Virus record (IMG/VR): IMGVR_UViG_2778261384_000002
Reading direction: 5' to 3' (one strand)
DNA length: 32,626 nt
Source: a virus
Lineage: Duplodnaviria; Heunggongvirae; Uroviricota; Caudoviricetes
Within the stretch, counting starts at the first letter, position 1; each line of letters opens with the position of its first letter. This document shows positions 919-29,129 of this stretch, piece after piece. Under the pieces are notes generated by a model. The model had not been told where the DNA came from. It worked only from the letters and a program-made list of their open reading frames with translations, and ran no database searches. The translations under genes were made by a program, and so were the position numbers.

Positions 919-940
919 AAAAGCCCGCCAGGCGGGCAAT
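919..940 (-). terminator. Rho-independent terminator closing the minus-strand tail operon
   Basis: On the minus strand: GCCCGC-CTG-GCGGGC hairpin followed by TTTTTT, immediately downstream of the last tail-operon ORF (ends 950). Coordinates approximate (+/-2). Confidence 0.55.
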
Positions 941-949
941 GAGAAGGGA

Positions 950-2596
950 TTAGCGTTCTATGATGGGGGATAGCTGCGCATGTAGCGTCGCAGCATTGAC
1001 AGATTCAGCCGTAAACAATGCGGCGGTTGTAGGTGGGCTACTGGGGCCGCACTGGCAGTTATGAATGTGCGCAGCGTCAGCCGCTGCCAGCCGTTGAACA
1101 ACCATCATCAGGTTATCCAACAGCACAAAAATATTTATTGCGTCCGTGCCGGTCCAACTCTTTCCGGCTTCAAAATGCTGCAATTCTTTAGCCACGCTAC
1201 GCCGCAGCTTGCCGACGACTTCAACCAACTGCCTGCCAACAGCGTGCCGGTGATCTCCTCCTGCTCCGGTGTCAATATCACCTGCGGTCATCTGCTCAAT
1301 AGCGCCCAGGGTATGCAGGATATGCGACCCGCCAACCTGTAACACATCATCACCCGTTACGCTGGCGCGACGCTCCACGACGTCCGTCTGTTCTTCATCC
1401 ACCGTCAACTTTCGCACCCGCGCAACTTCGGTCAGTGCCTGATCGGTTTCGCGGCTGACATCGCCGCGACTGTTTGTCTTATGCAGAACGCCCGCGCGTG
1501 ACTGCTGCACCTGCTCACCCGCAGCAACAGCAGGCAGCGTCAACCCCTGCGCCATTACCTGGCGGATGTGTGGGCGGTCCGGGCGTGCCTCACTGAATCC
1601 CAGTTCGACCAGTGTTCCCGGCGCGGGGTACTGCATCAGGCCGCTATCGCTTCCGCCAAACCCAACCGGCAACGGCACAGCCTGATAAACGGGGACCGTT
1701 TGATCGGGTTTCCCGTCTTCATCCAGTAACTGAACGTTGACGGCAAAGCGCGGACGGAATGGATCTGATATGTCGCTATGGCCGGTCGTGTCGCTGATAG
1801 CCTCAACGCGACCAATTTTCGGCAGGTGTAAACCTGCGGCCAGTTCCGGAAACTCCTTTTCAGCCTGGCGGCGGAATTGCGATTTTTGCGCCTCGCGGCC
1901 TTTGCTGTCTGTTACCGCCCATTTGACTGACATCTGGTCATCAGTCAGATCGATACGCTTAACCCGTTGGCCGTTAACGACAGCGCCAGGCCGCAGTGAC
2001 GGCACGCACACGATCCGCATAGTGTCGCCGCCAGTCTGCTGATCAGAAAATCCGGACGGTATATCAACGGGCAATGACGGCCATCGGGATTCCTGCCAAC
2101 TACCAACAAATACAACACCTTCGGGCAACTGCTGCCAGATATAATCCGGGATAGAAAAAGCGCGCCCCAGGTTGTTTAGCAACTGATAGCCGCTGCCTGA
2201 ATGGGTAAAGTTAGGGATCGGCGTATCGGTGTATGTCTGCCCGTCTGGCAGCGCAAACGCCAGCCCGCACTGTTCAGTAACCCAGTTACAGACATCCCGT
2301 AATGTTGGGTGCTGTATTGAACAGGGCATAGGGCGCGCCAGTATTCCCGTTAATTCACGCACCAGGATACGCTGCCAGCCCTTTTCCGCCTGCTGACTAC
2401 GCTCAACAATACCAGTGAACCAGCGCAGCATTTTTCCGGAATACCCCAGATCCAGCGCGACCATTTTTCCCTGCAAGTTTTCATCACCGGGGACCGTGAC
2501 AAAACCCAACCCAGCGCCGGACAACTCCAGCGCCAGATGTACATTAACCGGCGTTACCGTCTGCGAACCGATATAAAAACGGCTTGTTATCTTCAT
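950..2596 (-). CDS. Phage tail/baseplate protein, possibly gpD-like (late control D / hub family)
   Basis: 548 aa, last gene of the tail operon, start overlaps the upstream gene; N-terminal segment ALDLGYSGKMLRWFTGIVE resembles the P2 gpD N-terminal motif as recalled. Family assignment is tentative. Confidence 0.4.
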   Translation of the reverse strand: MKITSRFYIGSQTVTPVNVHLALELSGAGLGFVTVPGDENLQGKMVALDLGYSGKMLRWFTGIVERSQQAEKGWQRILVRELTGILARPMPCSIQHPTLRDVCNWVTEQCGLAFALPDGQTYTDTPIPNFTHSGSGYQLLNNLGRAFSIPDYIWQQLPEGVVFVGSWQESRWPSLPVDIPSGFSDQQTGGDTMRIVCVPSLRPGAVVNGQRVKRIDLTDDQMSVKWAVTDSKGREAQKSQFRRQAEKEFPELAAGLHLPKIGRVEAISDTTGHSDISDPFRPRFAVNVQLLDEDGKPDQTVPVYQAVPLPVGFGGSDSGLMQYPAPGTLVELGFSEARPDRPHIRQVMAQGLTLPAVAAGEQVQQSRAGVLHKTNSRGDVSRETDQALTEVARVRKLTVDEEQTDVVERRASVTGDDVLQVGGSHILHTLGAIEQMTAGDIDTGAGGDHRHAVGRQLVEVVGKLRRSVAKELQHFEAGKSWTGTDAINIFVLLDNLMMVVQRLAAADAAHIHNCQCGPSSPPTTAALFTAESVNAATLHAQLSPIIER

Positions 2597-3228
2597 TTGT
2601 CTTTGTCCGTTTTGACAGCTGATCCGGCTGTACCGGTTGACGTCGTATCCGCTTTTGATTCAGACGGCGACGGGGCCAGCCAGTCATCAATTTTTTTCCA
2701 GAATTTATCTGATGACGACATTTCAGTGTCTGGCGGTGTATTTTCCCCGGAAGATGCGCCCGGTGTCGTAATGCCTGGCGTCGTCTGCGAAACAACCCCG
2801 CCCAGTTTTGAAAATACATTGGCCTCTTTTTTCTCCGGTACACTGCTGTACTCCCGCAGAGTGAACGACACGTTCCACGCCCGCAGTGAATCCGATTCCG
2901 GCGCGCTCAGACGCCCGGTGAATGTCGCCTGGCGCATGTTGATCGCCGTGGCGGTGAGATTGGAAACTCGGTAAACCGTCTGCTTTCCGCCCTCGTCCAC
3001 CCCTTCCGCCAGTTCAAAAATACGCGTAAGGAATTCAACATTACGAAACGGGATCACGCCGCTGACATTTAATTCCTTTGCTTTTATCCCGCCCTCACTT
3101 TTCTGTGTTCCCGACGTCTGGCCAGACTGATCTTTGTCTTTGAACGGCAAAACAGCCTCCACTTTCAGATTCAGCATTTTTACCGTTTCGCCGTTCAGCG
3201 TTAAAATTACTGGGTGTCTCGTGCTCAT
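2593..3228 (-). CDS. Tail-operon protein of unknown function
   Basis: 211 aa; start and stop overlap the flanking ORFs (translational coupling); Ser/Thr/Pro-rich C-terminus; no motif recognised. Confidence 0.4.
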   Translation of the reverse strand: MSTRHPVILTLNGETVKMLNLKVEAVLPFKDKDQSGQTSGTQKSEGGIKAKELNVSGVIPFRNVEFLTRIFELAEGVDEGGKQTVYRVSNLTATAINMRQATFTGRLSAPESDSLRAWNVSFTLREYSSVPEKKEANVFSKLGGVVSQTTPGITTPGASSGENTPPDTEMSSSDKFWKKIDDWLAPSPSESKADTTSTGTAGSAVKTDKDK

Positions 3229-4094
3229 AGGCAGCCCTTCAAAAACGACAGATCCGCGCCAGTGAACAGCACGACAGCAGTAAAAATAAAAGAATGGCCG
3301 GGCGGGCTACTGGATTCCAACGCAGACGCCAGTGACGCACCGCCACCGCTTCCCTTCCAGGACCAGACCTGCACGGCGGTTTCGTTCAGCTTGTCAAAGT
3401 CACCAGCCAGATCAGAAACAGCCTTTTCACGCAGCTTTACCAGTTCCGCCAATGTATCGACCGGCGCGCGGGTTTTATATGCGGCCAGCATCGCCATTTC
3501 TGACAACAGCAGGCGGCGCGATTCACGGTGATTTTTTTCGATCAGGTCGCCAGACTCCGGCCACGCCGGATAGGTCAGCGCGCCGGGGCGTTGCATTTTC
3601 TGGGATTCCTTGCCAGCGTGAGCGCGGGCGGTGTTCAGTGCCTGCGTAAATCCGGGGGCGGGCAAGGTGTCACAGACTTTTGTCAGCTTGCTAATGAAGT
3701 CCCCAATCTGACCAGCGCAAACCAGTAAACAAACGGCGTCACCGCCTGCGCCCATTCTCAGATCTGCACCATCGCGCAATTTTTCGGCCAGCCTTTTGAC
3801 GGCGTTCGGCGGGCTAAGATAAGTGCCGCTTTCTTCCTCCTTACCCGCGCCAAACGTCCAGTTATGAACGGCGATTTGCTGCCCGTTCGTTGTCAGTTTA
3901 TCCAGTTCGACGCGCAGATCGGCTACCTGATCCGCCTGCCCCGCCAATTCTGGCTGCGGCCACTGCGCCCGCGATTCCAGCGCGCGCAATGCGTTAATGC
4001 CAGGGGATGACAGCGACGACAACGCACCGTTTAACGTGTCATGCGGCGTTTTCACTTCATCCGGCAGTTTTAACTGTCCATTACTCCACGCCAT
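3225..4094 (-). CDS. Tail-operon hypothetical protein (about 290 aa)
   Basis: Track ORF 3225..4187 begins with TTG; the internal ATG at 4094 has a GGAG Shine-Dalgarno about 13 nt upstream. Hydrophobic C-terminus. No family recognised. Confidence 0.35.
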   Translation of the reverse strand: MAWSNGQLKLPDEVKTPHDTLNGALSSLSSPGINALRALESRAQWPQPELAGQADQVADLRVELDKLTTNGQQIAVHNWTFGAGKEEESGTYLSPPNAVKRLAEKLRDGADLRMGAGGDAVCLLVCAGQIGDFISKLTKVCDTLPAPGFTQALNTARAHAGKESQKMQRPGALTYPAWPESGDLIEKNHRESRRLLLSEMAMLAAYKTRAPVDTLAELVKLREKAVSDLAGDFDKLNETAVQVWSWKGSGGGASLASALESSSPPGHSFIFTAVVLFTGADLSFLKGCL

Positions 4095-4567
4095 GAATAA
4101 CCCCGCTCCCATTCGCTGGAAACCAGCGCGTGTAACTGGCCGGGCGAATAACGCCAGGCATCCCGTAACTGCATAAATTCGGCACAAAACTCGCTACAAA
4201 ACCACTTTTCAGGATTCCCACGGCAAAACAGCAAAAAGCCGATAACCCCGGCGATGTCGTATTTTTTCCCCGCGTACAGGCGGTAAAAACTGGCGATTTC
4301 CTGCGGGCTGGCGCTGATTTCGATCAAGTCCCATTTGTCAGAGGGTAAAGGCATTGTTTTAGCCCTGACCCCGCCATCACGGAACGATGACGAATAGCAG
4401 GTAAAATCCGTGCCGACGTCGTAGCACTGCGGCCCCACGGCGATTTCACAATGTGAATACGGACTGCGGGTAACAAGGCGTGTCACCCAGTCCGCCAGGC
4501 GGGCCAACCCTTTGTGTTCGCTGCGCCCACGATAAAACGCAATAAAAACCGCGTTCATGGTTGCCAC
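4070..4567 (-). CDS. Hypothetical protein with permuted papain-like (peptidase C92 / YiiX-like) motifs
   Basis: 165 aa; His-containing motif SPYSHCEIAV followed later by WFCSEFCAEF resembles the His-then-Cys order of C92/YiiX-type permuted papain-fold proteins; overlaps the tail fibre assembly gene stop by 13 nt. Confidence 0.35.
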   Translation of the reverse strand: MATMNAVFIAFYRGRSEHKGLARLADWVTRLVTRSPYSHCEIAVGPQCYDVGTDFTCYSSSFRDGGVRAKTMPLPSDKWDLIEISASPQEIASFYRLYAGKKYDIAGVIGFLLFCRGNPEKWFCSEFCAEFMQLRDAWRYSPGQLHALVSSEWERGYSWRGVMDS

Positions 4568-5157
4568 CCCTGGGACCAGTCGTAAGCCTCAACGGCGGCA
4601 ATATCGTCCAGGGCATTCACTGCCGCAATATGCGCCTGCGCGACGGCAAATAACCGCATATCATGTTCAATGGTCACAACCTCAAACTGCGCGGCGATCG
4701 CGTTGGTCAGTTCAATCATGCCGTTATTTTTGGTCTGCCACATAAGGCCAGACGGAAGCGCGCCCGCCTGCCCCATTTTTGCCAGCGTCATTTGCTGAAT
4801 GCGGCTGTCTGCGTCGCTGTGAAAATGATGGCCGTTAATTTCAACGTAATCAGCCGTCAACGTGTCGCGGTGTTGTTTGATTGACTGATTAACCGTTATT
4901 TTTGCGTGTTCCAGCGCGGCGCTGAATGCATCGGTGTCGTAAACCCATTTATCACCATTCAGGCGATAAAACTCACCTGGGGGAGGCGTTGTTACCAGTT
5001 TCCCAACGGCTGGATTTACCCAACAATCGCGATCATGGTAGCGCCACTGCGTGTCAGTGACGGGCATAATTGTTTCGGGTAAAACAATATTGAATTGATC
5101 GGTATCCAGCCACTGTAGAACTTTTAAATCAATAGGATTGTAATAAGCGTATTTCAT
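4555..5157 (-). CDS. Tail fibre assembly chaperone
   Basis: Start taken at internal ATG (MKYAYYNPIDLKV...) 4 nt after the tail fibre stop, with GGTGG Shine-Dalgarno; N-terminal motif and position directly downstream of the tail fibre gene are typical of Tfa chaperones. Confidence 0.6.
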   Translation of the reverse strand: MKYAYYNPIDLKVLQWLDTDQFNIVLPETIMPVTDTQWRYHDRDCWVNPAVGKLVTTPPPGEFYRLNGDKWVYDTDAFSAALEHAKITVNQSIKQHRDTLTADYVEINGHHFHSDADSRIQQMTLAKMGQAGALPSGLMWQTKNNGMIELTNAIAAQFEVVTIEHDMRLFAVAQAHIAAVNALDDIAAVEAYDWSQGWQP

Positions 5158-5161
5158 TGAG

Positions 5162-7255
5162 TTACCACCAAATTCTGACAAAACCTGGCGAACCATTGCC
5201 GCCATTACTTTTATTCAGCCCACTACAACTACCGCCAGAACCGCCCGCGCCGTATCCTGTCCCGTTACTACAACCTGATGGAATTCCTTTCCCACCAAGC
5301 CCGAATGGGCTATTTTCGCCGTCGCCAGCGGTCCATATTGTTGATTTAAGGCCATTGAATTCAGCCGGATCCCAAACGCCACTGTTCAGTAATCCACTGC
5401 CGCCCGCGGCTGAAACACCTCCGAAACTAGAAGAACCGCCAGCACCACCAACAATCAGCGCCGTGCCTGATGCAGGGATCGCACCAGCACCGCCAGCACC
5501 TACAGCAACAGAAACAGCCGCCCCCGGCGAAACGGCGACTATTGCAATAGCAATTTGAGCGGCGCGCCCTCCTGGTGCTGGCTTGTAGTAATTGGTGGAC
5601 GATGGGGCCGCGCTGCCGCCAGCACCGCCCCCGATCATTTCCACGAAAACTTTCTTTACCCCGGCAGGGACAGTAAATGTCCCGTTTGCAGTAAACAGGG
5701 CAAAATTACCGAAATAGCGCAAATCGGCGTTTGCCGTCGTGATAAAGTCCGGCGCGCCGGTAATATCGGACCAGGAGTGTTTATGGTTGGCAGCGGCTGC
5801 GCTTACGTCGCTGTACGTCAGCGTAATATCCGCTGACAGTGCCTTATTGTTCACCTTGCGCGTTGTTGGCACGGCGTTTACGTCGCTGTACGTCAGCGCA
5901 ATGTCCGCTGACAGCGCCTTATTGTTCACCTTGCGCGTTGTCGGCACGGCGTTTACGTCGCTGTATGTCAGCGTAATATCCGCTGACAGCGCCTTATTGT
6001 TCACCTTGCGCGTTGTCGGCACAGCGTTTACGTCGCTGTACGTCAGCGTGATGTCCGCTGACAGCGCCTTATCGTTCACCTTGCGCGTTGTTGGCACGGC
6101 ATTTACGTCGCTGTACGTCAGCGCAATGTCCGCTGACAGCGCCTTATTGTTCACCTTGCGCGTTGTCGGCACGGCGTTTACGTCGCTGTATGTCAGCGTA
6201 ATATCCGCTGACAGCGCCTTATTATTCACCTTGCGCGTATCCTGCACCGCGTGAACAATGCGTGGATCATCTGCTGCGGCAACCTGCCCCGCCAATTGCC
6301 CTACGTTGCACACCGCTGCGCCACCCAGCCCCAGATTTACGCGCGACTTGCCTTTATCATCCAAATCAGCCAAGTTTTGCGCCCGGCGCAAGTAGCGCTT
6401 ATCCAGATCGTCACTGTTACGCACTGGACGTAAATCAGTGACTGCCCCATCTGCGGCAATTTCAGCAATTTTAAATACATAGTGGGTTTTCCCCGCAGCA
6501 TCCGAATATTCAGCCAGATCGCCCGACGTAATGACGCAGATATCAGTGACCGGCACGCAGGCAGTCATTACAGACCCCTGCCAGACGGTATCCAGCCAGA
6601 CGGCGGCGGGTTTAGTCCCGACCGCGACATCCTGCGCGGCTTCGTTCGCCAATCGCAAACCGGCCACATAACCCAACCCCGGCAGGCAGCTATATTTCAC
6701 CCCGCTACGTTGAACCAGCCACCCATCATCAAAAAACAGCGCACTGCCGTAATGATCGATATTCAGTAAACGCTGATAATCATCAATACCCGTCAGACGG
6801 GCGGTAAAATCGATCTGCCACGTTTCGGCAGGCGTATTAATCCCTGTCTTTTCTGCAGCACCGTTAAATTCAATCAAAAACGAGCGAGTAAACGCGTTTC
6901 CCTGTTCCGTCGCCGTCGTTTTCACCTTTTCCAGCGCCGGGACCGTTGTCACCATCGCTAAAAGGCCCGTTTTTTTGCAAATCAGGCCGATCCAGTTAAA
7001 CGAAAAATCGCCGACGTTTGTTCCCAGGGTAAACGAGTACGCTACCGTGTTTTTGTTAACCACGCCCGCAGCGTTGACGGGTTCGCGGTAAACAATTTGC
7101 GCAGCATCCGGCAGACCGGCGTCACGGTTTATCACCGCACCCGGATCAAGGCCGGGCACATTAGCCAAAACAAATTCATCCAGCGAAATGTCGCCCGGCG
7201 TCAGCAGATCAGCGGCCTGCCACTGCTCAAATGCCGTCGTGATAATTGTTGCCAT
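5162..7255 (-). CDS. Tail fibre protein with tandem fibre repeats and glycine-rich C-terminal domain
   Basis: 697 aa; six tandem 26-aa repeats (TRKVNNKALSADITLTYSDVNAVPT) typical of phage tail-fibre repeat units; Gly-rich C-terminus; follows the gpI-like gene as in P2 (H after I). Confidence 0.8.
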   Translation of the reverse strand: MATIITTAFEQWQAADLLTPGDISLDEFVLANVPGLDPGAVINRDAGLPDAAQIVYREPVNAAGVVNKNTVAYSFTLGTNVGDFSFNWIGLICKKTGLLAMVTTVPALEKVKTTATEQGNAFTRSFLIEFNGAAEKTGINTPAETWQIDFTARLTGIDDYQRLLNIDHYGSALFFDDGWLVQRSGVKYSCLPGLGYVAGLRLANEAAQDVAVGTKPAAVWLDTVWQGSVMTACVPVTDICVITSGDLAEYSDAAGKTHYVFKIAEIAADGAVTDLRPVRNSDDLDKRYLRRAQNLADLDDKGKSRVNLGLGGAAVCNVGQLAGQVAAADDPRIVHAVQDTRKVNNKALSADITLTYSDVNAVPTTRKVNNKALSADIALTYSDVNAVPTTRKVNDKALSADITLTYSDVNAVPTTRKVNNKALSADITLTYSDVNAVPTTRKVNNKALSADIALTYSDVNAVPTTRKVNNKALSADITLTYSDVSAAAANHKHSWSDITGAPDFITTANADLRYFGNFALFTANGTFTVPAGVKKVFVEMIGGGAGGSAAPSSTNYYKPAPGGRAAQIAIAIVAVSPGAAVSVAVGAGGAGAIPASGTALIVGGAGGSSSFGGVSAAGGSGLLNSGVWDPAEFNGLKSTIWTAGDGENSPFGLGGKGIPSGCSNGTGYGAGGSGGSCSGLNKSNGGNGSPGFVRIWW
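5795..6250. repeat. Tandem direct repeat, about 78 bp x 6, in-frame inside the tail fibre gene
   Basis: Unit cgtcgctgtacgtcagcgtaatatccgctgacag...ttgcgcgttgtcggcacggcgtttacgt recurs with 78-bp period and a few point differences. Coordinates approximate. Confidence 0.8.
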
Positions 7256-11910: not shown

Positions 11911-12161
11911 ACAACAATATCCAGTTCCGGCGCGTACTGTTTATTAACAGCCGCCGCGATCTGAATGGCTGCACCTGGCTTTTTCAGGATGCCGTTTAAT
12001 GCGTCCTTACTTTCGCGGGAAACAATGGCGCGCACATATTCAACTGATGGCGTAACTTTGTTATCCATTGCCATTTCATTGATAAAAGAGTTATAGGCGA
12101 CTTCGTTCGGTTCGAAAACAACATCCACACCGGAAATAGTCAGCGTAATAGATTCATCCAT
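11901..12161 (-). CDS. Tail assembly chaperone (P2 gpE-like), short form
   Basis: 86 aa immediately upstream of the tape measure gene; ends ...VVKK* with a slippery A7 run at its last codons. Confidence 0.6.
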   Translation of the reverse strand: MDESITLTISGVDVVFEPNEVAYNSFINEMAMDNKVTPSVEYVRAIVSRESKDALNGILKKPGAAIQIAAAVNKQYAPELDIVVKK

Positions 12162-12210
12162 TTTTATTTATCCAGAATAAAGAAGTTAATATTTTAAAGC
12201 GTTTAAATGG

Positions 12211-12549
12211 TTATTTAACGCCGTTGTGTTCCAGACTGAAATGATTTCCGTCTGGTTTACTGAAACGACCGCCCCACGTCCCGCCGAGCGATTCCCAATA
12301 CTCCCCAAGCAGCAAGTAATCACGACTGTCTGTCTTATATTCGCCTTTGATAAACAGATTAAAATCGACGGCCAGTCGCTGCGTATGCAAACTGTTTTTA
12401 ATGCCGCTGCCTTTTTTGGCATTCAGTGCCGCCTGTTCCGGCGTGCGGTACGCTTCACCAAATGTCAGCCAAAAGCCATTCGCGTTGGCGTACTGGATTA
12501 ATAAAGCGATCATTGATGTAAATCGCTGCTGCTTTTCACTCAGTGTCAT
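12211..12549 (-). CDS. Endolysin, peptidase M15-type (L-alanyl-D-glutamate / VanY-like)
   Basis: Start at internal ATG (MTLSEKQQRF...) with GGGAG Shine-Dalgarno; motifs FGEAYRTPEQ..., HTQRLAVDF and GGRFSKPDGNHF are typical of M15 zinc peptidase endolysins. Confidence 0.7.
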   Translation of the reverse strand: MTLSEKQQRFTSMIALLIQYANANGFWLTFGEAYRTPEQAALNAKKGSGIKNSLHTQRLAVDFNLFIKGEYKTDSRDYLLLGEYWESLGGTWGGRFSKPDGNHFSLEHNGVK

Positions 12550-12838
12550 TTGTCTTGCTCCCGTTCCTGGACTGCGCACGATTACGCAGCCATAGTTCAA
12601 CCGCCTGATAGCCCGCAATACCGAAAGCAGCCCCCAGACCGTTTATTGCAACGGGGTGTAAATCAGGGAACTGAATCAATGCAACACCGGCCACCATCGA
12701 CACCGCAGCGCCTAAAATTACGCGTCCAATAATTAAACGCAGTGTGATCGGTTCAGCGGTATTCAACACCTTACCCAATGCAATTAATGCGCCAATCCCC
12801 GCCAAAGTGAGAACGCTTTTTTCATGCGGTGTTAACAT
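12536..12838 (-). CDS. Putative holin (three predicted transmembrane segments)
   Basis: 100 aa; three hydrophobic stretches and a charged C-terminus (RNRAQSRNGSKTNDTE); 3' end overlaps the endolysin start. Confidence 0.5.
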   Translation of the reverse strand: MLTPHEKSVLTLAGIGALIALGKVLNTAEPITLRLIIGRVILGAAVSMVAGVALIQFPDLHPVAINGLGAAFGIAGYQAVELWLRNRAQSRNGSKTNDTE

Positions 12839-12842
12839 ATAA

Positions 12843-13310
12843 TTACCCGATTAAATCGCGGGTATCTTCATCTGACAGATAAGGAATACCATTAATTTTG
12901 ATAAATTCAGGCGCAGTCACTTTATATTTAATTTTATAAACTGATTTTTCGCCGCCTGCGGTGTCCACGTCCAGCAAACTGTCAATTGCCAGCTTACATC
13001 CAAAAGCCTCGACTTTAATTTTTTCGCTGCCCGCCTTTGCATAAAATAAAATGTCTTCCGGTTCAATTCCGCGATAACTGCCAGCCGATGCCGCCGCATC
13101 ATGGATACGTAAAAAGTTTTTGGTATCCAGTTCCATGTCACCTTCGGCGCTGACGTCGCCGTCAACATAACCATCAGGAATGCCGCGCGTTTTCGCTACG
13201 TCAGAGTTATCAGTAATAGTCAGTGTAATTTTATTTACATGAATCGTGGTATTGAATAACGTAATATCAAACGCCATTCCCGAAATGCGTTTAGAACCCG
13301 ACATAATCAA
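12843..13310 (-). CDS. Tail tube protein (FII-like)
   Basis: About 155 aa directly downstream of the sheath gene, with overlapping stop and start; track start is TTG, an ATG lies two codons in. Confidence 0.55.
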   Translation of the reverse strand: MIMSGSKRISGMAFDITLFNTTIHVNKITLTITDNSDVAKTRGIPDGYVDGDVSAEGDMELDTKNFLRIHDAAASAGSYRGIEPEDILFYAKAGSEKIKVEAFGCKLAIDSLLDVDTAGGEKSVYKIKYKVTAPEFIKINGIPYLSDEDTRDLIG

Positions 13311-14446
13311 GCCTCATTCTGTACAGACAGATCAACCATAATATTTACGCCAATAACCAGCGGGCATTCAGTCGGGCGCGCCTGTACGTAAATATTTACA
13401 TGCGTTGAATCAATCCATGTAATAACAATATCACCCTCTTTTGGTGAATAGACTTCACCGGGGAATGACACGCCGTTAATAGTGGTACTTTTCGCCATCG
13501 TGCGCAGCGGTTTAGCAAACTGCATTTGATGATATTCAACGCTGGACGGCGTGGAATTTAACGAGCGGTTACCAATATTGCGAATAGCCAGTAAACGCAC
13601 CTGGCGCGCCACTTTATCGACAATGCGCAAAATACGGATCGATTGATAGTCGCCTCCTTTTGTCGCCAATAACGGGCCATCATTCCAGTAAATACCCTCA
13701 AAATCCGCATACGTGACCGGAACAGAATAACGCGCAGCGTCCAGCGCCTGCACAATATCCGCTGTTACCGTCTCTCCGTTTTTGTCTTTAGTTGCGTTGC
13801 CAACAGACACGAGCGATCCAGTTAAAACGCGCGCGGGAGTATCTGCAATTGTCACCAGCCGATTACATAAACGTCCAGCAATTACACCTGGCAAATTCTC
13901 ATAAAGACGGGGAACCAGCATAACGCCATCAGCAACTAACCCCGTTTGCCATTGCGTTAAAGCGGCGGAATATTGTTGCCATGTCATGTCACCGCCAACA
14001 GGATTTTTAACGGGTAAAATAAACCATGTCCAACGACCGTATGTCGCGATTAATTCCTGGCGGAGAGCGGCAGCTTCTTTGGCGCTTTTAGTTAGAGAAA
14101 AACCGGACTCTTCTTCATTCCAGTCAGCAAAATCCTCTAACAATACAACGCCCTCAAAACTTCCGTATTTTTGGCATTTTTTAACAGCATCCTGCCACTT
14201 TTCGTCAGAATCCATAAAATAAACCGATGCCGACCAATTTTGCCCCGCATTCATCATGGCGGCGCGAATATCGTCACCCGCTGAACTTGTAATTTTGTCT
14301 AAATCAGTTTGAGTATTTAGCGTGTAAAAACCTGGGGTGTAATTTTCAAGCGGCGCATAGCTGACGAACAATAAATGCCGCTCTATTTCATTTACAGTGC
14401 CCTGCGCCAGATCAATCTGATTAACCTGCACTTGTGGGTAAGTCAT
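13307..14446 (-). CDS. Tail sheath protein (FI-like, DUF2586-type)
   Basis: 379 aa; position upstream of the tube gene and size fit a contractile-tail sheath; ATG overlaps the upstream gene stop. Confidence 0.55.
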   Translation of the reverse strand: MTYPQVQVNQIDLAQGTVNEIERHLLFVSYAPLENYTPGFYTLNTQTDLDKITSSAGDDIRAAMMNAGQNWSASVYFMDSDEKWQDAVKKCQKYGSFEGVVLLEDFADWNEEESGFSLTKSAKEAAALRQELIATYGRWTWFILPVKNPVGGDMTWQQYSAALTQWQTGLVADGVMLVPRLYENLPGVIAGRLCNRLVTIADTPARVLTGSLVSVGNATKDKNGETVTADIVQALDAARYSVPVTYADFEGIYWNDGPLLATKGGDYQSIRILRIVDKVARQVRLLAIRNIGNRSLNSTPSSVEYHQMQFAKPLRTMAKSTTINGVSFPGEVYSPKEGDIVITWIDSTHVNIYVQARPTECPLVIGVNIMVDLSVQNEA

Positions 14447-15075
14447 GGTTTTCTCACCTTTTTTAATTCCTGCGCTAATATCCGCGCGTTATGTTTTGAA
14501 CGGGTATCAAGCCAGGAGCGCGGCGGCGCGGGGATGTCCCATTCTTTTTTCGCGGCTTCTTCTTTCAGAATGCGAATAATCAGCCCCGCCTGCCCCTGCT
14601 TAATGTTCTGCGTAATCCATTTAATTGACGGCGTTTTCTTCTTTTTGCCTTGCTTAACCGTGTAACCCAGCTGCCGCAACTTGACCGCCTGCCCCCTCGT
14701 GACCGGCGCATCATATGCAGGCTGACCGCGCTGGCGCTTGAGCTGCGCAGCCGTCACATGTTCCGGCTTACCGTAGTGATGGCGCGCTGCCATATCGCTA
14801 TGAACGGGGTTTTTCCAGTGCAACTTCACATCATCAGAAGTCGGCGTAATGCTCATTAGCGCAGGAATGCGACGCATCATTTTTTTACTGCCGCGCTGGC
14901 GCTTTTCCCATCCGCGCCCGTCCGGTGTCCGCTGCGCCCTGGCGTTCTGCTGCGCTTCCCGCTTAATCCGCCTGGCGGCATTCTGCAAAACCTGCCGCCG
15001 CTTTGCCGGTGGCAGTTCCAGCGCCGAAAGCCTGATTAGCGCCTCACGCTGGCCGCGCAGGTCGGTTCTAATCAC
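14443..15075 (-). CDS. Tail completion / virion morphogenesis protein, P2 gpS-like
   Basis: Segment RRIKREAQQNARAQRTPDGRGWEKRQRG resembles the gpS-family N-terminal motif as recalled. Track ORF begins with GTG at 15186 inside the upstream gene; GTG at 15075 has a GGGGTGG Shine-Dalgarno and is used here. Confidence 0.5.
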   Translation of the reverse strand: MIRTDLRGQREALIRLSALELPPAKRRQVLQNAARRIKREAQQNARAQRTPDGRGWEKRQRGSKKMMRRIPALMSITPTSDDVKLHWKNPVHSDMAARHHYGKPEHVTAAQLKRQRGQPAYDAPVTRGQAVKLRQLGYTVKQGKKKKTPSIKWITQNIKQGQAGLIIRILKEEAAKKEWDIPAPPRSWLDTRSKHNARILAQELKKVRKP

Positions 15076-20618: not shown

Positions 20619-21647
20619 ATGGCAAAACGTAAAAAGCAACAACCAGCCCCCGCGCCAGCTATTCAAAAACAGATGTCTTTTAGCGTGGAATTCGGCGACG
20701 CCGAGCGCGTGCCGTGCCTGGGTTCATATGATGGCGTAACGGATGAAGGGGACGGCTACTGGACGCCGCCCATTGACCGGGAATCGCTGGCAAAATTGCC
20801 CGACATCGCAACGTACCACGGCGCATGTCTGGGGGCGCGCGCAAAAATGGTCGCTGCGGGTTTTCTGCGCGGCGGCGGTCTGACGCCTGAAACCGCGCTG
20901 GCACTGGCCGTTAATTTCGTGACATTCGGTGATGTCGCGTTGCTGAAAATCCGTAACGGTTTCGGGCAGGTTGTACGCCTTTACCCGCTGCCGTCTGTTT
21001 ATGTGCGGCGTTCCACAGATGGCAAAACAAAATTATTGTTACGCGACGGTGAATATAAAGAGTATGCCGCAAAAGATATTATCTTTATTCGTCAGTATGA
21101 TACGTTGCAGCAGATTTACGGAAAACCGGATTATTTAGGCGGAATCCAGTCGGCGATGTTAAACAGTGACGCGACCATGTTTCGCCGTAAATATTACCGC
21201 AACGGAGCGCACTTAGGTTATATCCTGTACGCGACCGATCCGGACTTATCGCCGGAAATGGAAAAAGAAATTTCAGAAAAGATAGAACAATCAAAAGGTG
21301 CAGGTAATTTCCGCAGTATGTTTATTAACATCCCCAACGGTAAACCGGACGGCGTTAAAATTATCCCAGTGGGTGATGTCGCAACAAAAGACGAATATGT
21401 GAATATTAAGCGCATATCCGCACAGGACCAGTTAACCGCCCATCGTTTCCCGCCCGGCCTTGCGGGCATCATTCCGGATAACGTGGGCGGGCTGGGCGAT
21501 CCGTTAAAAGTCCGAGCCGTATATCAATTAGATGAAGTCTGGCCCATGCAGGCGCTAATTGAGAATGCAATCAATAGTGATTCCGAAATTACCCGCGCAA
21601 TGCAGGTGTTATTCAAAAAACCGAAAGCGATAGAGGATGAAAAATAA
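20619..21647 (+). CDS. Portal protein, P2 gpQ-like
   Basis: 342 aa directly after terminase P; size and order match the P2 P-Q operon. Confidence 0.9.
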   Translation: MAKRKKQQPAPAPAIQKQMSFSVEFGDAERVPCLGSYDGVTDEGDGYWTPPIDRESLAKLPDIATYHGACLGARAKMVAAGFLRGGGLTPETALALAVNFVTFGDVALLKIRNGFGQVVRLYPLPSVYVRRSTDGKTKLLLRDGEYKEYAAKDIIFIRQYDTLQQIYGKPDYLGGIQSAMLNSDATMFRRKYYRNGAHLGYILYATDPDLSPEMEKEISEKIEQSKGAGNFRSMFINIPNGKPDGVKIIPVGDVATKDEYVNIKRISAQDQLTAHRFPPGLAGIIPDNVGGLGDPLKVRAVYQLDEVWPMQALIENAINSDSEITRAMQVLFKKPKAIEDEK

Positions 21648-21964
21648 TGGCTAAACGGTTAAAATATACCCCGTTCAAAAATAGATTAAGGGGAATCAAA
21701 TTGCGCAGCCCGAAAATTATCTGTCCGGAATGCAACGGCAATTCAACGATCAAAAAGACCGTGCGGAAACATCCCCATCTATCAGATGTTTATTGCGCCT
21801 GTAATAACGTTGAGTGCGGTCATACTTTCGTTGTAAATATGACATTTTCCCACACCCTAAGCCCCAGCGCGCTTTCATCAGACCGCGCTATCAAAACGCT
21901 TATCGATATGATGTCACCCGGCCAGCGTCAAATCGCTTTAAACCTTTTACAGCCCAACATGTAA
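21647..21964 (+). CDS. Ogr/Delta-family zinc-finger late transcription activator
   Basis: 105 aa with CPEC...(22 aa)...CACNNVECGHTF, matching the Ogr CxxC-N22-CxxxxC zinc-finger arrangement; start overlaps the portal stop. Confidence 0.7.
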   Translation: MAKRLKYTPFKNRLRGIKLRSPKIICPECNGNSTIKKTVRKHPHLSDVYCACNNVECGHTFVVNMTFSHTLSPSALSSDRAIKTLIDMMSPGQRQIALNLLQPNM

Positions 21965-21993
21965 AAAAACCGCCGTATTGGCGGTTTTTTATA
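21965..21993. terminator. Bidirectional rho-independent terminator
   Basis: AAAAAAA-CCGCCG-tatt-GGCGGT-TTTTTT hairpin with A-run and T-run, between the convergent ogr-like gene (+) and HEPN-motif gene (-). Coordinates approximate. Confidence 0.6.
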
Positions 21994-22006
21994 TCTATAA
22001 ATTTTG

Positions 22007-22786
22007 TTATTCAGTTTCTTGTAAAAGATGCTCTTGTAAATTGCTTTCGGCAGCATCAATCCAAACAGACATACTCTCAACAAAATTAGAAATATCTTCC
22101 AACGCTTTGATTAAAATATCTTTACTGAGCGTGATTTTAGTACCTTCTTTATCAAAACCATTTCTATGTACTATGTCATGTCGTATCTTTGCAATTTTAC
22201 AAACCTCTGGTATTTCTTTCTTAACATTATCTGGAACTTTCTCTCCAAGCACAGCGCCGTAAACTTGGACAGTTTTTTCAATGTTATGGTACAAGTAGTC
22301 AGAAAACTTTCGAATAGCCACGGTTTTAACTATATCTGGATTTAAGTATACGTCTTTTAATGATAATTTTTCTTTTTTTAACTCTTCAACATCATCTATT
22401 GCATTTTCAAAAAAATGATTATTCCTAAGAATTAGACTTTTTATCATGTCACCTAGACATGTTTCCATCAGAGTTATTGAATAAGAGTACATCATTTTCA
22501 ATGCTGACTCGGAAGGCTTGGAAGTAATATCGTCTTTCAATTCTTCCATTTGTTCGCTGAATTGCCTGTACGCATAATTTTCTGACCCAAGCCGGAAAAC
22601 TTCATCCTGTAAAAATTCATCTTCCCAATAATCATCATCTGTAAATTGCCCAGATAGATATTGCGCCTTTAAGTCTTCCCACTCCTCATCACCCGGCTCG
22701 ACCCCCAGATCCGCATGTTCCCTTATCCACTCAATCATAGCTTCTTCAGCTTCACAAGCCTCAATGTATCGTTTTACTGAACCCAT
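22007..22786 (-). CDS. Accessory protein with HEPN-like R-x4-H motif (candidate abortive-infection RNase)
   Basis: 259 aa in a distinctly AT-rich segment; AGGGGA Shine-Dalgarno 6 nt upstream of ATG; acidic N-terminus; C-terminal KIRHDIVHRNG contains an R-x4-H motif of the kind found in HEPN nucleases. Confidence 0.45.
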   Translation of the reverse strand: MGSVKRYIEACEAEEAMIEWIREHADLGVEPGDEEWEDLKAQYLSGQFTDDDYWEDEFLQDEVFRLGSENYAYRQFSEQMEELKDDITSKPSESALKMMYSYSITLMETCLGDMIKSLILRNNHFFENAIDDVEELKKEKLSLKDVYLNPDIVKTVAIRKFSDYLYHNIEKTVQVYGAVLGEKVPDNVKKEIPEVCKIAKIRHDIVHRNGFDKEGTKITLSKDILIKALEDISNFVESMSVWIDAAESNLQEHLLQETE

Positions 22787-23010
22787 TTTTTCCCCTATAG
22801 ATTTTTTGCAAGTAGATGTGTCTGAAATGTTAACAGCATAAGGAACATCTTATCAATACTCCCCATCACAGTTATGAAGGATTAACTTAGAAAGCATCAC
22901 ATCACGCTTTCCCCTATTCAGGTCTACCCAGCAAATTATATTCATGCTATCTAATGTTCACGGTCACAATTTAAGTATTTACCGTTTAAATACATGGGGG
23001 TTGATTTAAT

Positions 23011-23441: not shown

Positions 23442-26006
23442 TCAGTGCGGTACCGCAGCACGCCAGCGCGCCATCAGTTCCGCCGTTTTATTTTTCGCCA
23501 TCGCACGCCGCCAGTGCTGGAAGGTGTCAATCAGCACTAATTCGCCGGTGTTCAGGTTTGCCCGGTAAACGTTATCGATCACCGTCGCCTGCCCGCCCTG
23601 CGCCAGTGCCAGCGATTGCGCGCGCCCCAGCGGTATTTTGCGCAATTTCGCCCACGCCATGATGCGCGCGGCCAGTTCTGCCGCCGCAGCAGTGATCGGT
23701 TTTTCAGTCTCGCGAATGACCGCCGCCGCACGTAAATAATTTTCTGCGCGCAACTGGTCCGCGTCCGAACAGTCAGCCGTCGCTATTTGATACGCCATCG
23801 CCTCGAATTCGTCAGCAGCAGACTGTTTACGCTGTTTTTTGTGCGTCAGGCACTCAGCGCGCAGGCGTTTGCGCTGTTCCCGTGTCAATTTGCCGATCAG
23901 AACCTGTTCGGGATCTCCCGGTGGCGACGAGCCGCTGTTTTTCTCTCCCAAAAAGTCTGTTTTGCTGTTTATATTTTGCTCATCTTTTGCTGTTTTTTCA
24001 GGCTCCGTACAGTTATTGACACGAGTCCTAGCGGGCGCAGACGCGCCCTTAAGGTCAAAAGATGAACAGCCATCACCGGGGCGCTCCGCGCTCTCCGGCG
24101 ATTTTTTAACAATGCGAAAATCCCGCAACCTGGTTATTACCGGCGGGATATTAATCAGCGGCATAAATACACCGCGGATAACCGTCAGATATTCGCCCCA
24201 GCTGTTAGGCTCCGGTTTATCCTGATAAAACGTGCGTAACGGTAAATCCGCGCGTTTTGCCAGCGGTCCGCCCATGAGATTAACAAAACCGCCCCAGTCG
24301 CCCGCATCCGCTGCGGCGTGGATCTCGGCAAACAGCGGATTAACCTGATCAGCGGCCTGTTGATTCCCCAGCCTCCGCAGTTCGCGGTACACCGATACCG
24401 GTACACCGCCCAAAAACTGGAACTGTCTGATCCCCCACGTAGACGCCCACGCAGTGGCGTGATGCGCCGTGTCTTTCAGTGGGCGTCCGCTTTCGTCGTC
24501 GCGCTCATTATCCAGCGCGTAACCGTCGATATTTTTTGAGACGTATTTGACGATATAGCCCGTAGCGGTCCCCCGCTCAGGATCAATCGGTTTGAAATCG
24601 AAACGCGGCTGTATACCGTGTTTCGTCGTTAATTCGTCGGCGTCCTCAGCCGTTGCGTAACGCTGCATGACGTCGCGTAGCGCCTCCTGATGCTCCGGCA
24701 GAGTGAATAACAGGCCGTGCCAGTGCGGCGTCGCGTCGTGATGCGCCTCGGCTACACGTAAGCCAAAAGCGCCGATTTCCTGGCGCGCCAGCTCGGCGCG
24801 GATACGCTGCCAGATAGTATTCAGGTATTTTTGAGACTCACGCGGGCTAACGCCCTGCCATTTGGGATTACGATGACCAAACGCGGTAAACGCGTGATAT
24901 TTTGACGGCGCGGTAATAGTAAAAAAGCTGCCGACAAATCCCTGCTCGTTTGCTACCCGCTCAAAACCGCCAATTCGCGTCATAAGCTCAGTGCGGCGGA
25001 TCGCGGGATTGGACGCGCTTTTTTCTATCTGGTCCAGCAGTGAAAAATGCTCGCCTGTTTCCACGTCTTCTATTTCTAAACGCGCCATAATGTCGCGATT
25101 ACGCTCGCGGCGCTCCCGCCAGGCGCTCACGCGTTCTTTACTACAATAGGTAGATACGCTGCGGCGCACATCGCCCAGGGCGATCCGCAAATGTTCCCGC
25201 CAGCGCACGGCGTAACGCAGTAAATTGCGGTTCCAGTAGCGCGCGTCGATCATTTTGCTGATCGCTGCCGCCAGTTCGTCGGGCAACAGACGCGTTTTGT
25301 TTGCCCCTGTCGCTGTGACGTGAAAAACGTTAGCCAGCGTTTTCAATTCAGCATAAAACCGCCGACCGGTTTCGATTTCGTCCAGGTGTCCACAATCTGC
25401 GGCAATTTCTGCCAGCGTGGCGTTTGCGTAAATTGCGACATCCTGCGCCAGCAATTCAACATCCTCCGGCGAATAATCAGGCAGTGTGTCGAAACGACGG
25501 ATCAGATCGGTGAGTTGTTCAAAATTGTGATAGAGCGGCTCAAGGCCAACAAACGGCGTTTCATAAACCCGCCCAGCATTGCGGGGCGGGTTTATGGAAT
25601 ACCGATTCATAACGGCGGAAATGTGGATTAATTCGCGGCTGGCGATATCTCGCAGCGCCAGCGCCGCGACGTGTCGCCCCTGCTTTTCGTGAGAACGTTC
25701 AACGCGCGCAATCATGCGGCGGCGGACGAATAGCGGGTACGGCTGAAAAGTGGATTTTACACGCTGCCAAAATTCGTATTCGGCGGCGAACTCCTGCGGA
25801 TCGTGTTTCGGAGTCCGATCAACGCTAATTGCTGCGCGCGGGGCGTTCCACGCGTAGGGATACGGTGTATTGTCTGCGCCGCTCCCCAGGAACGGGGGCG
25901 GCGGTGTTGGGGCGTAGCGTCCGCGCGTCAATTGATAGACGCCTTCCACTGCGCAGCTAATGGATCGATTTCGTTGTAATAGGCGGTCATAAATCCGCCT
26001 CTTCAA
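23442..26006 (-). CDS. Replication initiation endonuclease, P2 gpA-like (rolling-circle)
   Basis: 854 aa; motifs YAWNAPR, ITAPSKYH, HHDATPHWHGLLF and YIVKYVSKNIDGYALD match the gpA family; track start is TTG, true start uncertain. Confidence 0.85.
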   Translation of the reverse strand: MKRRIYDRLLQRNRSISCAVEGVYQLTRGRYAPTPPPPFLGSGADNTPYPYAWNAPRAAISVDRTPKHDPQEFAAEYEFWQRVKSTFQPYPLFVRRRMIARVERSHEKQGRHVAALALRDIASRELIHISAVMNRYSINPPRNAGRVYETPFVGLEPLYHNFEQLTDLIRRFDTLPDYSPEDVELLAQDVAIYANATLAEIAADCGHLDEIETGRRFYAELKTLANVFHVTATGANKTRLLPDELAAAISKMIDARYWNRNLLRYAVRWREHLRIALGDVRRSVSTYCSKERVSAWRERRERNRDIMARLEIEDVETGEHFSLLDQIEKSASNPAIRRTELMTRIGGFERVANEQGFVGSFFTITAPSKYHAFTAFGHRNPKWQGVSPRESQKYLNTIWQRIRAELARQEIGAFGLRVAEAHHDATPHWHGLLFTLPEHQEALRDVMQRYATAEDADELTTKHGIQPRFDFKPIDPERGTATGYIVKYVSKNIDGYALDNERDDESGRPLKDTAHHATAWASTWGIRQFQFLGGVPVSVYRELRRLGNQQAADQVNPLFAEIHAAADAGDWGGFVNLMGGPLAKRADLPLRTFYQDKPEPNSWGEYLTVIRGVFMPLINIPPVITRLRDFRIVKKSPESAERPGDGCSSFDLKGASAPARTRVNNCTEPEKTAKDEQNINSKTDFLGEKNSGSSPPGDPEQVLIGKLTREQRKRLRAECLTHKKQRKQSAADEFEAMAYQIATADCSDADQLRAENYLRAAAVIRETEKPITAAAAELAARIMAWAKLRKIPLGRAQSLALAQGGQATVIDNVYRANLNTGELVLIDTFQHWRRAMAKNKTAELMARWRAAVPH

Positions 26007-28376: not shown

Positions 28377-28592
28377 TTAGATTCCGTATGGTGAAGGGGG
28401 AAGAGATGGGCGGCTCAGCGCATTAGTAAGACGACGGCGCATGGATTGTATAAATGCAACAACATCAGGATCTGTTGATGCCAGTGTTAATTCGCCTGCG
28501 TTACGCGTTTTTATAGTCATTCCGCGCTCTTCAAGCTCCGGTAAAAATGAATGCAATACAAAACTGTATTCATCCCGTTTAGTCATAGACAT
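28377..28592 (-). CDS. Small hypothetical early protein
   Basis: 71-aa ORF in the early operon, 3 nt upstream of the exonuclease gene; no motif recognised. Confidence 0.3.
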   Translation of the reverse strand: MSMTKRDEYSFVLHSFLPELEERGMTIKTRNAGELTLASTDPDVVAFIQSMRRRLTNALSRPSLPPSPYGI

Positions 28593-28669
28593 ATAATTAC
28601 CCGTTTTTAGGTTGTAAGAATCCGCACCACTTTTTAAAGTGGTGTGCGATATTTAATAAATTCAGTTAA

Positions 28670-28903
28670 TTAAAAATAGCGTTTAATTAATTTAATCAGT
28701 GCGGCTATTACGCCCCTGTTTATTTTTTGCGTGTACACAAAAGGCTTGTTTCTGCCCTTAATAAACTGAACTCTTGACGGCTCCGGCTTAAAATAACGCC
28801 CGTCCGGTGTTTCAATCCAGCCGCGCGTCGATTTACAATGCGTGACCTGGCAACCGTTGCGTAATAGACTGGCGAATGAAGGAAATTGTTGTTCACTCAT
28901 AAC
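28670..28903 (-). CDS. Small hypothetical early protein
   Basis: Internal start MSEQQF... about 77 aa, overlapping the upstream small membrane ORF by 7 nt; basic C-terminus. Confidence 0.3.
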   Translation of the reverse strand, partial: VMSEQQFPSFASLLRNGCQVTHCKSTRGWIETPDGRYFKPEPSRVQFIKGRNKPFVYTQKINRGVIAALIKLIKRYF

Positions 28904-29118
28904 AGACACTCTAAAAGGGAGGCGACGCCAAATATTAGCAGCCAGCCACAAAATACATCTAAAAATAATGGTGCCGCCGCTTCAATATCCCTGTGTAATG
29001 CGTCAATAAAACGGATTCTGTTGCTACTGTTTTTTAATCTTCCGTAGGACCAAACAACAACGGCCCCCAAAATAAAAACCGCAACATTAAATATCCCCGA
29101 AAAAAAATATTGGCTCAT
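28897..29118 (-). CDS. Small membrane protein (two predicted TM helices)
   Basis: 73 aa with two hydrophobic segments (NVAVFILGAVVVW and FCGWLLIFGVASLL). Confidence 0.35.
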   Translation of the reverse strand: MSQYFFSGIFNVAVFILGAVVVWSYGRLKNSSNRIRFIDALHRDIEAAAPLFLDVFCGWLLIFGVASLLECLL

Positions 29119-29129
29119 TGCGCACCCGT

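Follow-up and report, generated by a model that had tools for sequence, protein, structure and literature searches.

Two genes downstream of the tail fibre assembly gene in an HP1-type prophage of Escherichia coli: an Orf33-family tail protein and a predicted fibre-linked acyl enzyme

The 32,626-nucleotide (nt) DNA of the Caudoviricetes record IMGVR_UViG_2778261384_000002 (the window, meaning the whole stretch that was analysed) raises the question of what two consecutive minus-strand genes, here termed geneA (4070-4558) and geneB (3225-4094), contribute to the phage. They lie directly downstream of the gene for the tail fibre assembly protein (Tfa), and an earlier note, made from the sequence alone, had likened this position to that of the Z/fun exclusion moron of phage P2, while considering that both products might be structural rather than cargo, for example a tail-associated cell-wall hydrolase. 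Our analysis favours, with a probability of about 0.6, two evolutionarily independent genes that share one late tail operon: geneB coding for a tail protein of the HP1 Orf33 type, and geneA for a fibre-linked acyl enzyme.

The late tail operon downstream of the fibre gene

Pfam and PHROG matches, together with the gene order, identify the window as an HP1-type Peduoviridae prophage of E. coli and exclude a P2-type one. The families recognised in the late region are GPL, GpR, tail S, DUF2586 at the sheath position, the HP1 Orf24 tube, a holin, an M15 endolysin, the tape measure protein (TMP), DUF2590 (the gpW equivalent), J, I and HP1_ORF34, and the tail genes follow each other as TMP-W-J-I-fibre-Tfa-[geneA]-orf33-orf34-orf35. 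HP1, K139, phiO18P and ESSI2_ev239 are colinear with the window, in the order TMP-W-J-I-fibre-Tfa-orf33-orf34-orf35. The hub and spike genes of HP1-type tails thus come 3' of the fibre genes, and because of this order the stretch after Tfa is not a moron slot of the P2 style.

All genes of this stretch are encoded on the minus strand. Tfa (4555-5205, 216 amino acids (aa)) contains a DUF4376 domain (Pfam, expectation value (E) 6.1e-11) in its C-terminal residues 102-205, at about nt 4591-4902. It is followed by the 162-aa geneA, a stand-alone permuted papain-like NlpC/P60 Cys-His enzyme of the YaeF/YiiX type, and by the 289-aa geneB. The next gene, geneC (2593-3228, 211 aa), encodes a baseplate complex protein of the HP1 Orf34 family (PF25759 HP1_ORF34, E 2.8e-53); its profile matched nothing in the PDB, and an HHpred link to P2 gpU, marked as uncertain by its authors, makes it a possible gpU equivalent (PMC10612066 Table S1). 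The last gene, geneD (950-2596, 548 aa), encodes a hub and spike protein of the HP1 Orf35 type (phrog_2258 'baseplate protein', E 1.5e-205). The geneD-family profile matches the spike region of VgrG and T4 gp5 (E 3.6e-4), which is consistent with the published description of HP1 Orf35 as a gpD-gpV fusion (PMC10612066 Table S1); pairwise BLASTP of geneD against P2 gpD and gpV was uninformative, the link to the spike coming from the profile only.

The start codon of geneA overlaps the stop codon of Tfa as ATGA, the ATG of geneB lies within the 3' end of geneA (a 25-nt overlap), and the geneB/geneC and geneC/geneD junctions are again ATGA overlaps. The genes from Tfa through geneD are translationally coupled, as had been proposed for geneA and geneB. 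A consensus scan of 950-7255 turned up no promoter-like site on the minus strand, and the single strong terminator-like hairpin of the same scan, a Rho-independent one (GCCCGCCTGGCGGGC and a T run, 923-937, minus strand), lies 13 nt past the geneD stop, at the end of the late tail operon. Given the overlaps, the lack of an internal promoter-like site and a terminator only after geneD, the five genes 3' of the fibre gene belong to one late operon. The guanine plus cytosine (GC) content of geneA (0.536) and geneB (0.574) is core-like, as noticed earlier, the neighbouring tail genes, among them the fibre, J, I and TMP genes, having values of 0.50-0.56.

The two consecutive minus-strand open reading frames (ORFs) after the fibre-assembly gene are genuine, each having many homologues, though two lengths given for them previously change. 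The 165 aa ascribed to geneA depend on an upstream GTG at 4567, whereas the likely start is the ATG at 4558, as in RefSeq/PGAP, and geneB has 289 rather than 290 aa. In an identical E. coli prophage beside yeaD/yeaE, genes of 162 and 289 aa are likewise called by RefSeq/PGAP, which names both 'hypothetical protein'. This prophage is found in 7 of 5426 complete E. coli genomes; E. coli LZSFT34, for example, has it at 547-580 kb of NZ_CP132728.1. The region gave no match to the phage collection by megablast.

These features do not sustain the equation of the locus with the Z/fun position, as three more same-strand tail genes precede the operon terminator, whereas P2 Z/fun lies beyond a terminator and on the opposite strand. 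A moron of the Z/fun type would be expected to form an independent transcription unit, having its own promoter or terminator or lying on the opposite strand, and to be of atypical composition, which describes neither geneA nor geneB. Alignment by hhalign gave a probability of similarity to Z/fun of 0.1% for the geneA family and 0.2% for the geneB family, and the PADLOC defence models matched neither gene at E up to 0.1. Neither geneA nor geneB is a Z/fun-type moron.

geneB and the HP1 Orf33 family

The geneB product had been described as having no recognisable family. It belongs, over its full length, to phrog_1677, the HP1 Orf33 family (E 1e-59, residues 4-287). By tblastn it recovers HP1 orf33 (6e-24) and K139 orf37 (2e-17), as well as HP2 orf33, Kappa KP43 and phiO18P gp44, and the geneB-family profile matches HP1 orf33 at 7e-39. 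Alignment-seeded and exhaustive profile searches showed the family to be closed: it comprises 293 clusters (50% identity), and nothing connects it to named families. Its members have 230-310 aa, the shorter ones being devoid of the first ~70 residues. Neither geneA nor geneB is matched by Pfam or NCBIfam, and single-sequence searches of the PDB gave chance matches only. The geneB profile likewise retrieved nothing from the PDB and did not match P2 gpU or gpD. Matches of geneB relatives to FlgN, SlyX and Baculo_PEP_C were below threshold, and were judged to reflect coiled-coil composition instead of homology.

To place the family in its genomic context we used 80 viral loci selected via the orf34 gene, which served as the sample for counts of both orf33 and geneA in HP1-type tails. 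A homologue of orf33 lies directly upstream of orf34 in ~70 of the 80, and the remainder mostly look like artefacts of the ORF filter. The geneB of the window adjoins the genes for Orf34 (PF25759) and Orf35 in the same manner as in HP1, K139, phiO18P and ESSI2. An Orf33-family homologue is also present in an unannotated gap between gp32 and gp33 of Pseudomonas phage phi3 (NC_030940.1, record ~28460-29373, or ~4090-5004 in our locus L103; E 2.5e-22 with the geneB-family profile).

Experimental information comes from Pseudoalteromonas phage ACA1, whose gp46, a distant homologue of geneB ('HP1 orf33' by HHpred), was detected by mass spectrometry in purified virions, at a spectral abundance per mass (0.09) comparable to that of gpW (0.08), gpJ (0.05) and gpV (0.06); the authors state that they detected no non-structural or unexpected proteins (PMC10612066 Table S2). 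The geneB-family profile aligns with ACA1 gp46 by hhalign at E 3.2e-5 and a probability of 73%, and the two genes occupy the same syntenic position. Membership in the Orf33 family, synteny with baseplate genes and the presence of ACA1 gp46 in virions together lead us to read geneB as a tail protein. It is most likely a conserved low-copy component, and from its gene neighbours its location is most likely to be the baseplate. The earlier expectation of a structural role is thereby supported for geneB, while geneA does not fit it as a core structural gene, being present in 3 of the 80 HP1-type loci and travelling with Tfa. As the geneB family is already catalogued, though without an assigned function, this result chiefly tidies the annotation, which becomes that of an Orf33-family tail protein instead of an orphan, and makes clear that the HP1-type tail operon does not stop at the fibre genes but runs on as far as the hub and spike.

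geneA, its fold and its link to DUF4376 chaperones

The motifs SPYSHCEIAV and WFCSEFCAEF, in which a permuted papain-like enzyme had been recognised, are present in geneA, and this reading holds up. An alignment of 116 homologues reveals the invariant residues A7, Y9, T30, H36, E38, C54, D61, G63, V64, R65, K67, W76, Y100, D101, G104, C121, S122 and P139. Among them are the predicted catalytic histidine, His36 (motif YSHCE; codon 4451-4453, minus strand), and the predicted catalytic cysteine, Cys121 (motif FCSE; codon 4196-4198, minus strand). The histidine is N-terminal of the cysteine, which is the permuted order, and not the order of canonical NlpC/P60 or CHAP enzymes (Cys before His). The AlphaFold2 (AF2) model of geneA (mean predicted local distance difference test (pLDDT) 81, predicted template modelling score (pTM) 0.80) displays the α+β core of the papain-like NlpC/P60 fold. 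In structural comparisons it scored highest against E. coli YiiX (2if6, 11.4) and a 'cysteine peptidase' of B. cereus (3kw0, BcPPNE, 11.0), followed by TseH (6.7), Aichivirus 2A (6.5), MARTX RID (5.9), PLAAT4 (5.7), PPPDE (5.0) and Cln5 (4.6). Consistently, the geneA-family profile recovers 3kw0 from the PDB at E 0.005, aligning YSHCE with FSHTG and WFCSEF with YICSEF. In the numbering of BcPPNE (PMC3142127), His36 of geneA corresponds to His49 and Cys121 to Cys154, and the invariant Tyr100, 21 residues ahead of Cys121 (13 in YiiX, 27 in BcPPNE), is a candidate for the signature tyrosine.

No Pfam model of the NLPC_P60, CHAP or other lysin families matched any of the 116 family members at E up to 1. 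On the evidence of the modelled fold and the motifs, geneA would represent a sister clade of the peptidase C92 group, its sequence not qualifying it as a C92 member. In PHROGs it falls into phrog_1128, which bears the name 'enoyl-CoA hydratase/carnithine racemase-like' and is categorised as moron, auxiliary metabolic gene and host takeover; SuMu gp51 and its homologue in H. parasuis carry this name as well. Neither the name nor the moron category has support from the fold or the motifs, and they appear to be a propagated misannotation, extending to SuMu gp51 (4947-5468 of locus L001) and ORF176 of RP12 (4995-5438 of locus L097). In short, geneA is a new clade of a known enzyme superfamily, lacking a Pfam entry and bearing a misleading inherited name. 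The cysteines Cys37, Cys54 and Cys125 (codons 4448-4450, 4397-4399 and 4184-4186) are 94-100% conserved across the 116 homologues and might together bind a metal; YiiX is labelled a 'metalloprotein' in the title under which 2if6 was deposited.

The structural neighbours of geneA and other permuted NlpC/P60 enzymes offer some guidance as to its chemistry. RID, PLAAT/LRAT and Cln5 are acyl-transferases or thioesterases. YiiX, whose function is unproven, was crystallised with a fatty acid in its hydrophobic S1 pocket (PMC3142127), LnsA of S. aureus participates in the N-acylation of lipoproteins (PMC7387801), and the type VI secretion system effectors Tox-Act1 and TseH are phospholipases (PMC12994826). 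The characterised permuted NlpC/P60 enzymes target lipid or fatty-acyl bonds, and peptidoglycan is not their substrate (PMC3142127, PMC7387801, PMC12994826). By analogy, geneA would most likely form an acyl-thioester on Cys121 and then either hydrolyse the fatty-acyl group off or transfer it. No signal peptide or transmembrane segment was found in geneA, which is predicted to be soluble. Its relatives are all stand-alone proteins of 94-185 aa, and its neighbours in BFVD are only uncharacterised phage proteins of the same size, with no fusions. Searches of the literature found no functional data on the homologue STM4198, and the SuMu proteomics paper makes no mention of gp51.

In more than 80 loci altogether, geneA comes directly after a fibre-assembly gene, and this placement, with translational coupling, recurs in myoviruses of the P2, Mu and HP1 types and in some siphoviruses. 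Contextual analysis of 80 IMG/VR loci carrying geneA homologues showed that the end of the upstream ORF nearly always coincides with the start of geneA. Of the upstream proteins examined (n=62), 46 possess DUF4376 and 18 Caudo_TAP according to Pfam, and local iterated profiles uncovered a partial Caudo_TAP-like N-terminal region combined with a C-terminal DUF4376 in 38. With the Tfa of the window as query, all three genome loci recovered have geneA directly downstream, and the only two records of the phage collection with a close Tfa both carry geneA. The genes 3' of geneA are variable, and include a Dam methylase, a second fibre gene, and genes for sheath, capsid and a CHAP protein. Domain-wise comparison of loci indicated that the variable N-terminal half of Tfa co-varies with the fibre tip. 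In loci where J, I, the fibre and the N-terminal half of Tfa are unmatched (J at most 25-28% identical), the C-terminal half of Tfa is nevertheless 53-70% and geneA 51-58% identical to the window. As the C-terminal half of Tfa and geneA are common to loci with unrelated fibre and J genes and with varying downstream genes, the two behave like a single mobile unit with which fibre cassettes end on their 3' side, distributed over P2-, Mu- and HP1-type tails.

Homologues of geneA occur in the Mu-like phage SuMu (gp51, after the fibre and Tfa genes), in the Salmonella prophage remnant containing STM4198, in Moraxella Mcat phages, in Pasteurella phages and in a siphovirus of P. stutzeri; in true P2-type phages the homologue is the last gene before the sheath gene, at the G/FI junction. 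It was not found in HP1, K139, phiO18P or ESSI2, and DUF4376 was not found in the Tfa of these four phages or in P2 gpG. The three HP1-type loci with geneA are all of the window's own lineage. The gene does not belong to the set of HP1 tail genes, and is an accessory rather than an essential part of the baseplate. We found no earlier description of the association between DUF4376 and geneA, which is mildly new.

Alternative readings, neighbouring features and known systems

Several results weigh against reading geneB as a tail protein and geneA as a fibre-linked acyl enzyme. The phages C5a, yong1, Canoe and SMHB1 possess orf34-orf35 and have no orf33 at E up to 10, so that orf33 is not universally required in HP1-type tails. 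The structural model of geneB is of low quality (pLDDT 61) and gave no meaningful match to any fold, and the signal of ACA1 gp46 consists of two spectra, its alignment to HP1 orf33 by the authors' HHpred search having 16% identity (PMC10612066). In the geneA model, residues 11-30 and 101-120 have a pLDDT below 70. The third member of the YiiX/BcPPNE triad, a polar residue, is Glu64, ~15 residues after the histidine (PMC3142127); geneA has Ser57 at this position, conserved in 60-90% of sequences, while Ser56, Ser58, Glu38 and Asp61 near it are each at least 97% conserved. The Pfam Peptidase_C92 model (PF05708) does not detect geneA, and a single member of the 116 touches it, at E 0.092; the profile comparison suggested in the earlier note reached neither C92 nor NlpC/P60. 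A distant homologue in the jumbo phage RP12 is a lone opposite-strand gene away from the fibre genes; as this copy stands alone, a geneA-type enzyme can exist without a chaperone partner. Tight linkage between two genes can also come from adjacency alone.

With regard to geneB, a serious though less probable alternative (roughly one in four) is that Orf33 is a non-structural assembly factor such as a helical chaperone for the fibre or the hub. Long helices are predicted in geneB, 23 of 50 family members show sub-threshold matches to FlgN-type export chaperones, and the three sampled HP1-type phages C5a, yong1 and Canoe, in which the fibre gene abuts orf34 with no fibre chaperone gene, lack Orf33 as well; the signal of ACA1 gp46, too, amounts to only two spectra. 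However, this protein was recovered from purified virions in which non-structural proteins were reported as undetected (PMC10612066 Table S2), FlgN matches under the Pfam threshold are typical of coiled-coil composition, and in SMHB1 the fibre is followed by a small gene although orf33 is missing. Among these few phages, Orf33 mostly occurs where a separate fibre chaperone does and is missing where it is missing.

For geneA, the alternative to be taken most seriously, though we consider it clearly less probable than a fibre-linked role, is cargo that acts in the infected or lysogenic cell: a lipid or lipoprotein enzyme altering the envelope so as to block superinfection, limit the loss of progeny on debris or aid lysis, kept beside the fibre genes since its target matches the receptor of the fibre. 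Its patchy, accessory occurrence, the PHROGs category, the location of homologues at the G/FI junction of P2-type phages (the site of Z/fun in P2), the solitary RP12 copy and a soluble, cytoplasmic protein with no docking domain are all in its favour. Yet geneA has no promoter or terminator of its own and overlaps its neighbours at both start and stop, its GC is core-like, unlike that of the low-GC island at 22007-22786, its expected late-only expression would fit exclusion poorly, it has no PADLOC match, and its conserved partner is DUF4376, while the receptor-binding fibre tip varies independently. We regard as improbable a processing protease that cleaves the chaperone off the folded fibre, or trims either of them, although a papain-like Cys/His fold, strict genetic coupling to the chaperone gene, and the crystallisation of BcPPNE with a bound amino acid and its discussion as a peptidase or amidase (PMC3142127) are suggestive of one. 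The fatty-acyl specificity and hydrophobic S1 pocket of the characterised permuted enzymes (PMC3142127, PMC12994826) argue against it. Moreover, chaperones of the Caudo_TAP type function without such a partner, and we know of no fibre system that employs a separate cysteine protease. Least credible of all is the tail-associated peptidoglycan hydrolase that had been offered as an example, which would aid in crossing the cell wall. Tail lysins usually sit with spike or tape measure genes, whereas geneA is linked to the fibre chaperone, and the phage already possesses an M15 endolysin (12211-12618). The NlpC/P60 superfamily fold is what such a proposal has to build on; the catalytic residues come in permuted order, it is YiiX and BcPPNE that match best and not P60 or CHAP enzymes, no lysin model matches, and TseH itself shows phospholipase activity (PMC12994826).

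Under the preferred reading of two independent genes, geneB would be made along with Orf34 (gpU-like) and Orf35 (gpD-gpV) and form a low-copy structural or attachment part at the baseplate. The gene geneA would have entered the lineage by recombination between the fibre gene and orf33, as the 3' end of a fibre cassette, and be produced late, at the same time as the fibre and the chaperone. It may work with the complex of chaperone and fibre tip on a lipid-linked target. This might be a lipid or lipoprotein of the host envelope, located at the receptor, or else the fibre or the chaperone. A more specific and decidedly speculative proposal is that DUF4376 and the YiiX-like enzyme constitute an undescribed two-part fibre accessory, in which the chaperone domain would hold the enzyme at the fibre tip, to be delivered to the cell surface on adsorption, where it might remove or transfer a fatty-acyl group of lipid A, of a lipoprotein or of a phospholipid in the outer membrane and so prime irreversible binding or penetration. 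If this were true, such a fibre-tip enzyme would do for lipids what the receptor-modifying esterases and depolymerases carried by the fibres of other phages do for their targets. Lipid or acyl chemistry is unusual for anything tied to tail fibres, and the geneA-type enzyme is tightly and widely linked to DUF4376 chaperones over unrelated tail types. Action at the fibre tip or on the receptor would add a new accessory activity in phage adsorption and give a handle on the function of DUF4376 and YiiX-like proteins. Overall, the locus provides an ordinary tail-module finding and one modestly interesting lead, geneA.

Elsewhere in the window, the tail fibre gene itself (5162-7255, minus strand, 697 aa; Pfam Phage_tail_fib 1.7e-26, Gly_rich_2 3.5e-08) starts with a tail-collar fibre domain at the N terminus, continues with six 25-aa repeats and has a glycine-rich domain at the C terminus. 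The repeats correspond to 5.9 tandem copies of a 75-nt unit at 5799-6238 (93% matches; 25-aa shaft repeat KVNNKALSADITLTYSDVNAVPTTR), and in the fibre of the close relative L014 the middle is 52% identical and the ends are 84-86% identical, suggesting variation in repeat number or sequence. Within geneD, 34 nt at 2348-2381 (CGTTAATTCACGCACCAGGATACGCTGCCAGCCC) are identical to a spacer and flanking bases of an annotated array of clustered regularly interspaced short palindromic repeats (CRISPR) in E. coli WP8-S18-CRE-02 (NZ_AP022245.1, ~985176-985226); GSH8M-2, YSP8-1 and 16 more records have the same short match to this segment, at the megablast level only. In a low-GC stretch at ~21500-23000 (GC 0.31-0.43) a 259-aa minus-strand ORF (22007-22786) with a RiboL-PSP-HEPN match (E 1.1e-06) is flanked by an Ogr/Delta-like zinc-finger gene (21647-21964) and the replication gene A (23442-26006), and appears to be the true low-GC moron or defence cargo of the prophage. 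In the region 12000-14500 the genes at the sheath (DUF2586, GC 0.46) and tube (HP1 Orf24, GC 0.42) positions are lower in GC than the baseplate, fibre and TMP genes (~0.54), a hint that the tail module may be of mosaic origin. Beyond the operon terminator, at 1-950, GC falls to 0.45, and the small plus-strand ORFs located there, a DUF4177-like one of 78 aa (1-237, a sub-threshold match) and a YidD-family one of 71 aa (237-452), may be cargo of the phage or part of the host DNA bordering the prophage.

P2 Z/fun, a lysogenic-conversion moron located between G and FI, lies just after the fibre-assembly gene as geneA does, and geneA homologues fill the same G/FI junction in true P2-type relatives; but Z/fun is on the opposite strand after the V-operon terminator, whereas geneA and geneB are co-directional with their neighbours, overlap them and have no signals of their own. 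In relation to Orf33 of Haemophilus phage HP1, Orf37 of Vibrio phage K139 and ACA1 gp46, geneB is a full-length family member at the same place upstream of Orf34 and Orf35. It shares with K139-type members an extra N-terminal helical region of ~70 aa, which HP1, ESSI2 and ACA1 do not have, and the window alone has a foreign gene, geneA, between orf33 and the fibre chaperone.

The closest counterparts of geneA, YiiX (2if6) and BcPPNE (3kw0), have the same permuted order, His before Cys, with Tyr100 of geneA as the candidate for the signature tyrosine between them, and a similarly small single-domain size, and their SH and (F/I)CSE motifs align with it residue by residue. It differs from them in its low identity (19-23%, below the Pfam C92 threshold), in the Ser in place of Glu, and in the extra near-invariant Cys37, Cys54 and Cys125; moreover, the YiiX and BcPPNE genes are chromosomal, whereas geneA is encoded in phage tail-fibre cassettes. 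LnsA, Tox-Act1, TseH, RID, PLAAT/LRAT and Cln5 have the permuted Cys/His core in common with geneA, with TseH, RID, PLAAT4 and Cln5 as structural neighbours, but the characterised permuted acyl enzymes are secreted, toxin-borne or membrane-targeted, whereas geneA has no signal peptide, transmembrane segment or delivery domain. No immunity-like gene is evident beside geneA, though no search was aimed at one. Finally, the gene upstream of geneA is a modular chaperone like those of the Caudo_TAP type (P2 gpG, Mu U, lambda Tfa), and many geneA-linked chaperones retain part of the N-terminal region typical of these. The classical Caudo_TAP chaperones examined have no geneA partner, whereas in the window the C-terminal half of Tfa is DUF4376, and it is this half, not the fibre-matching one, that stays with geneA.

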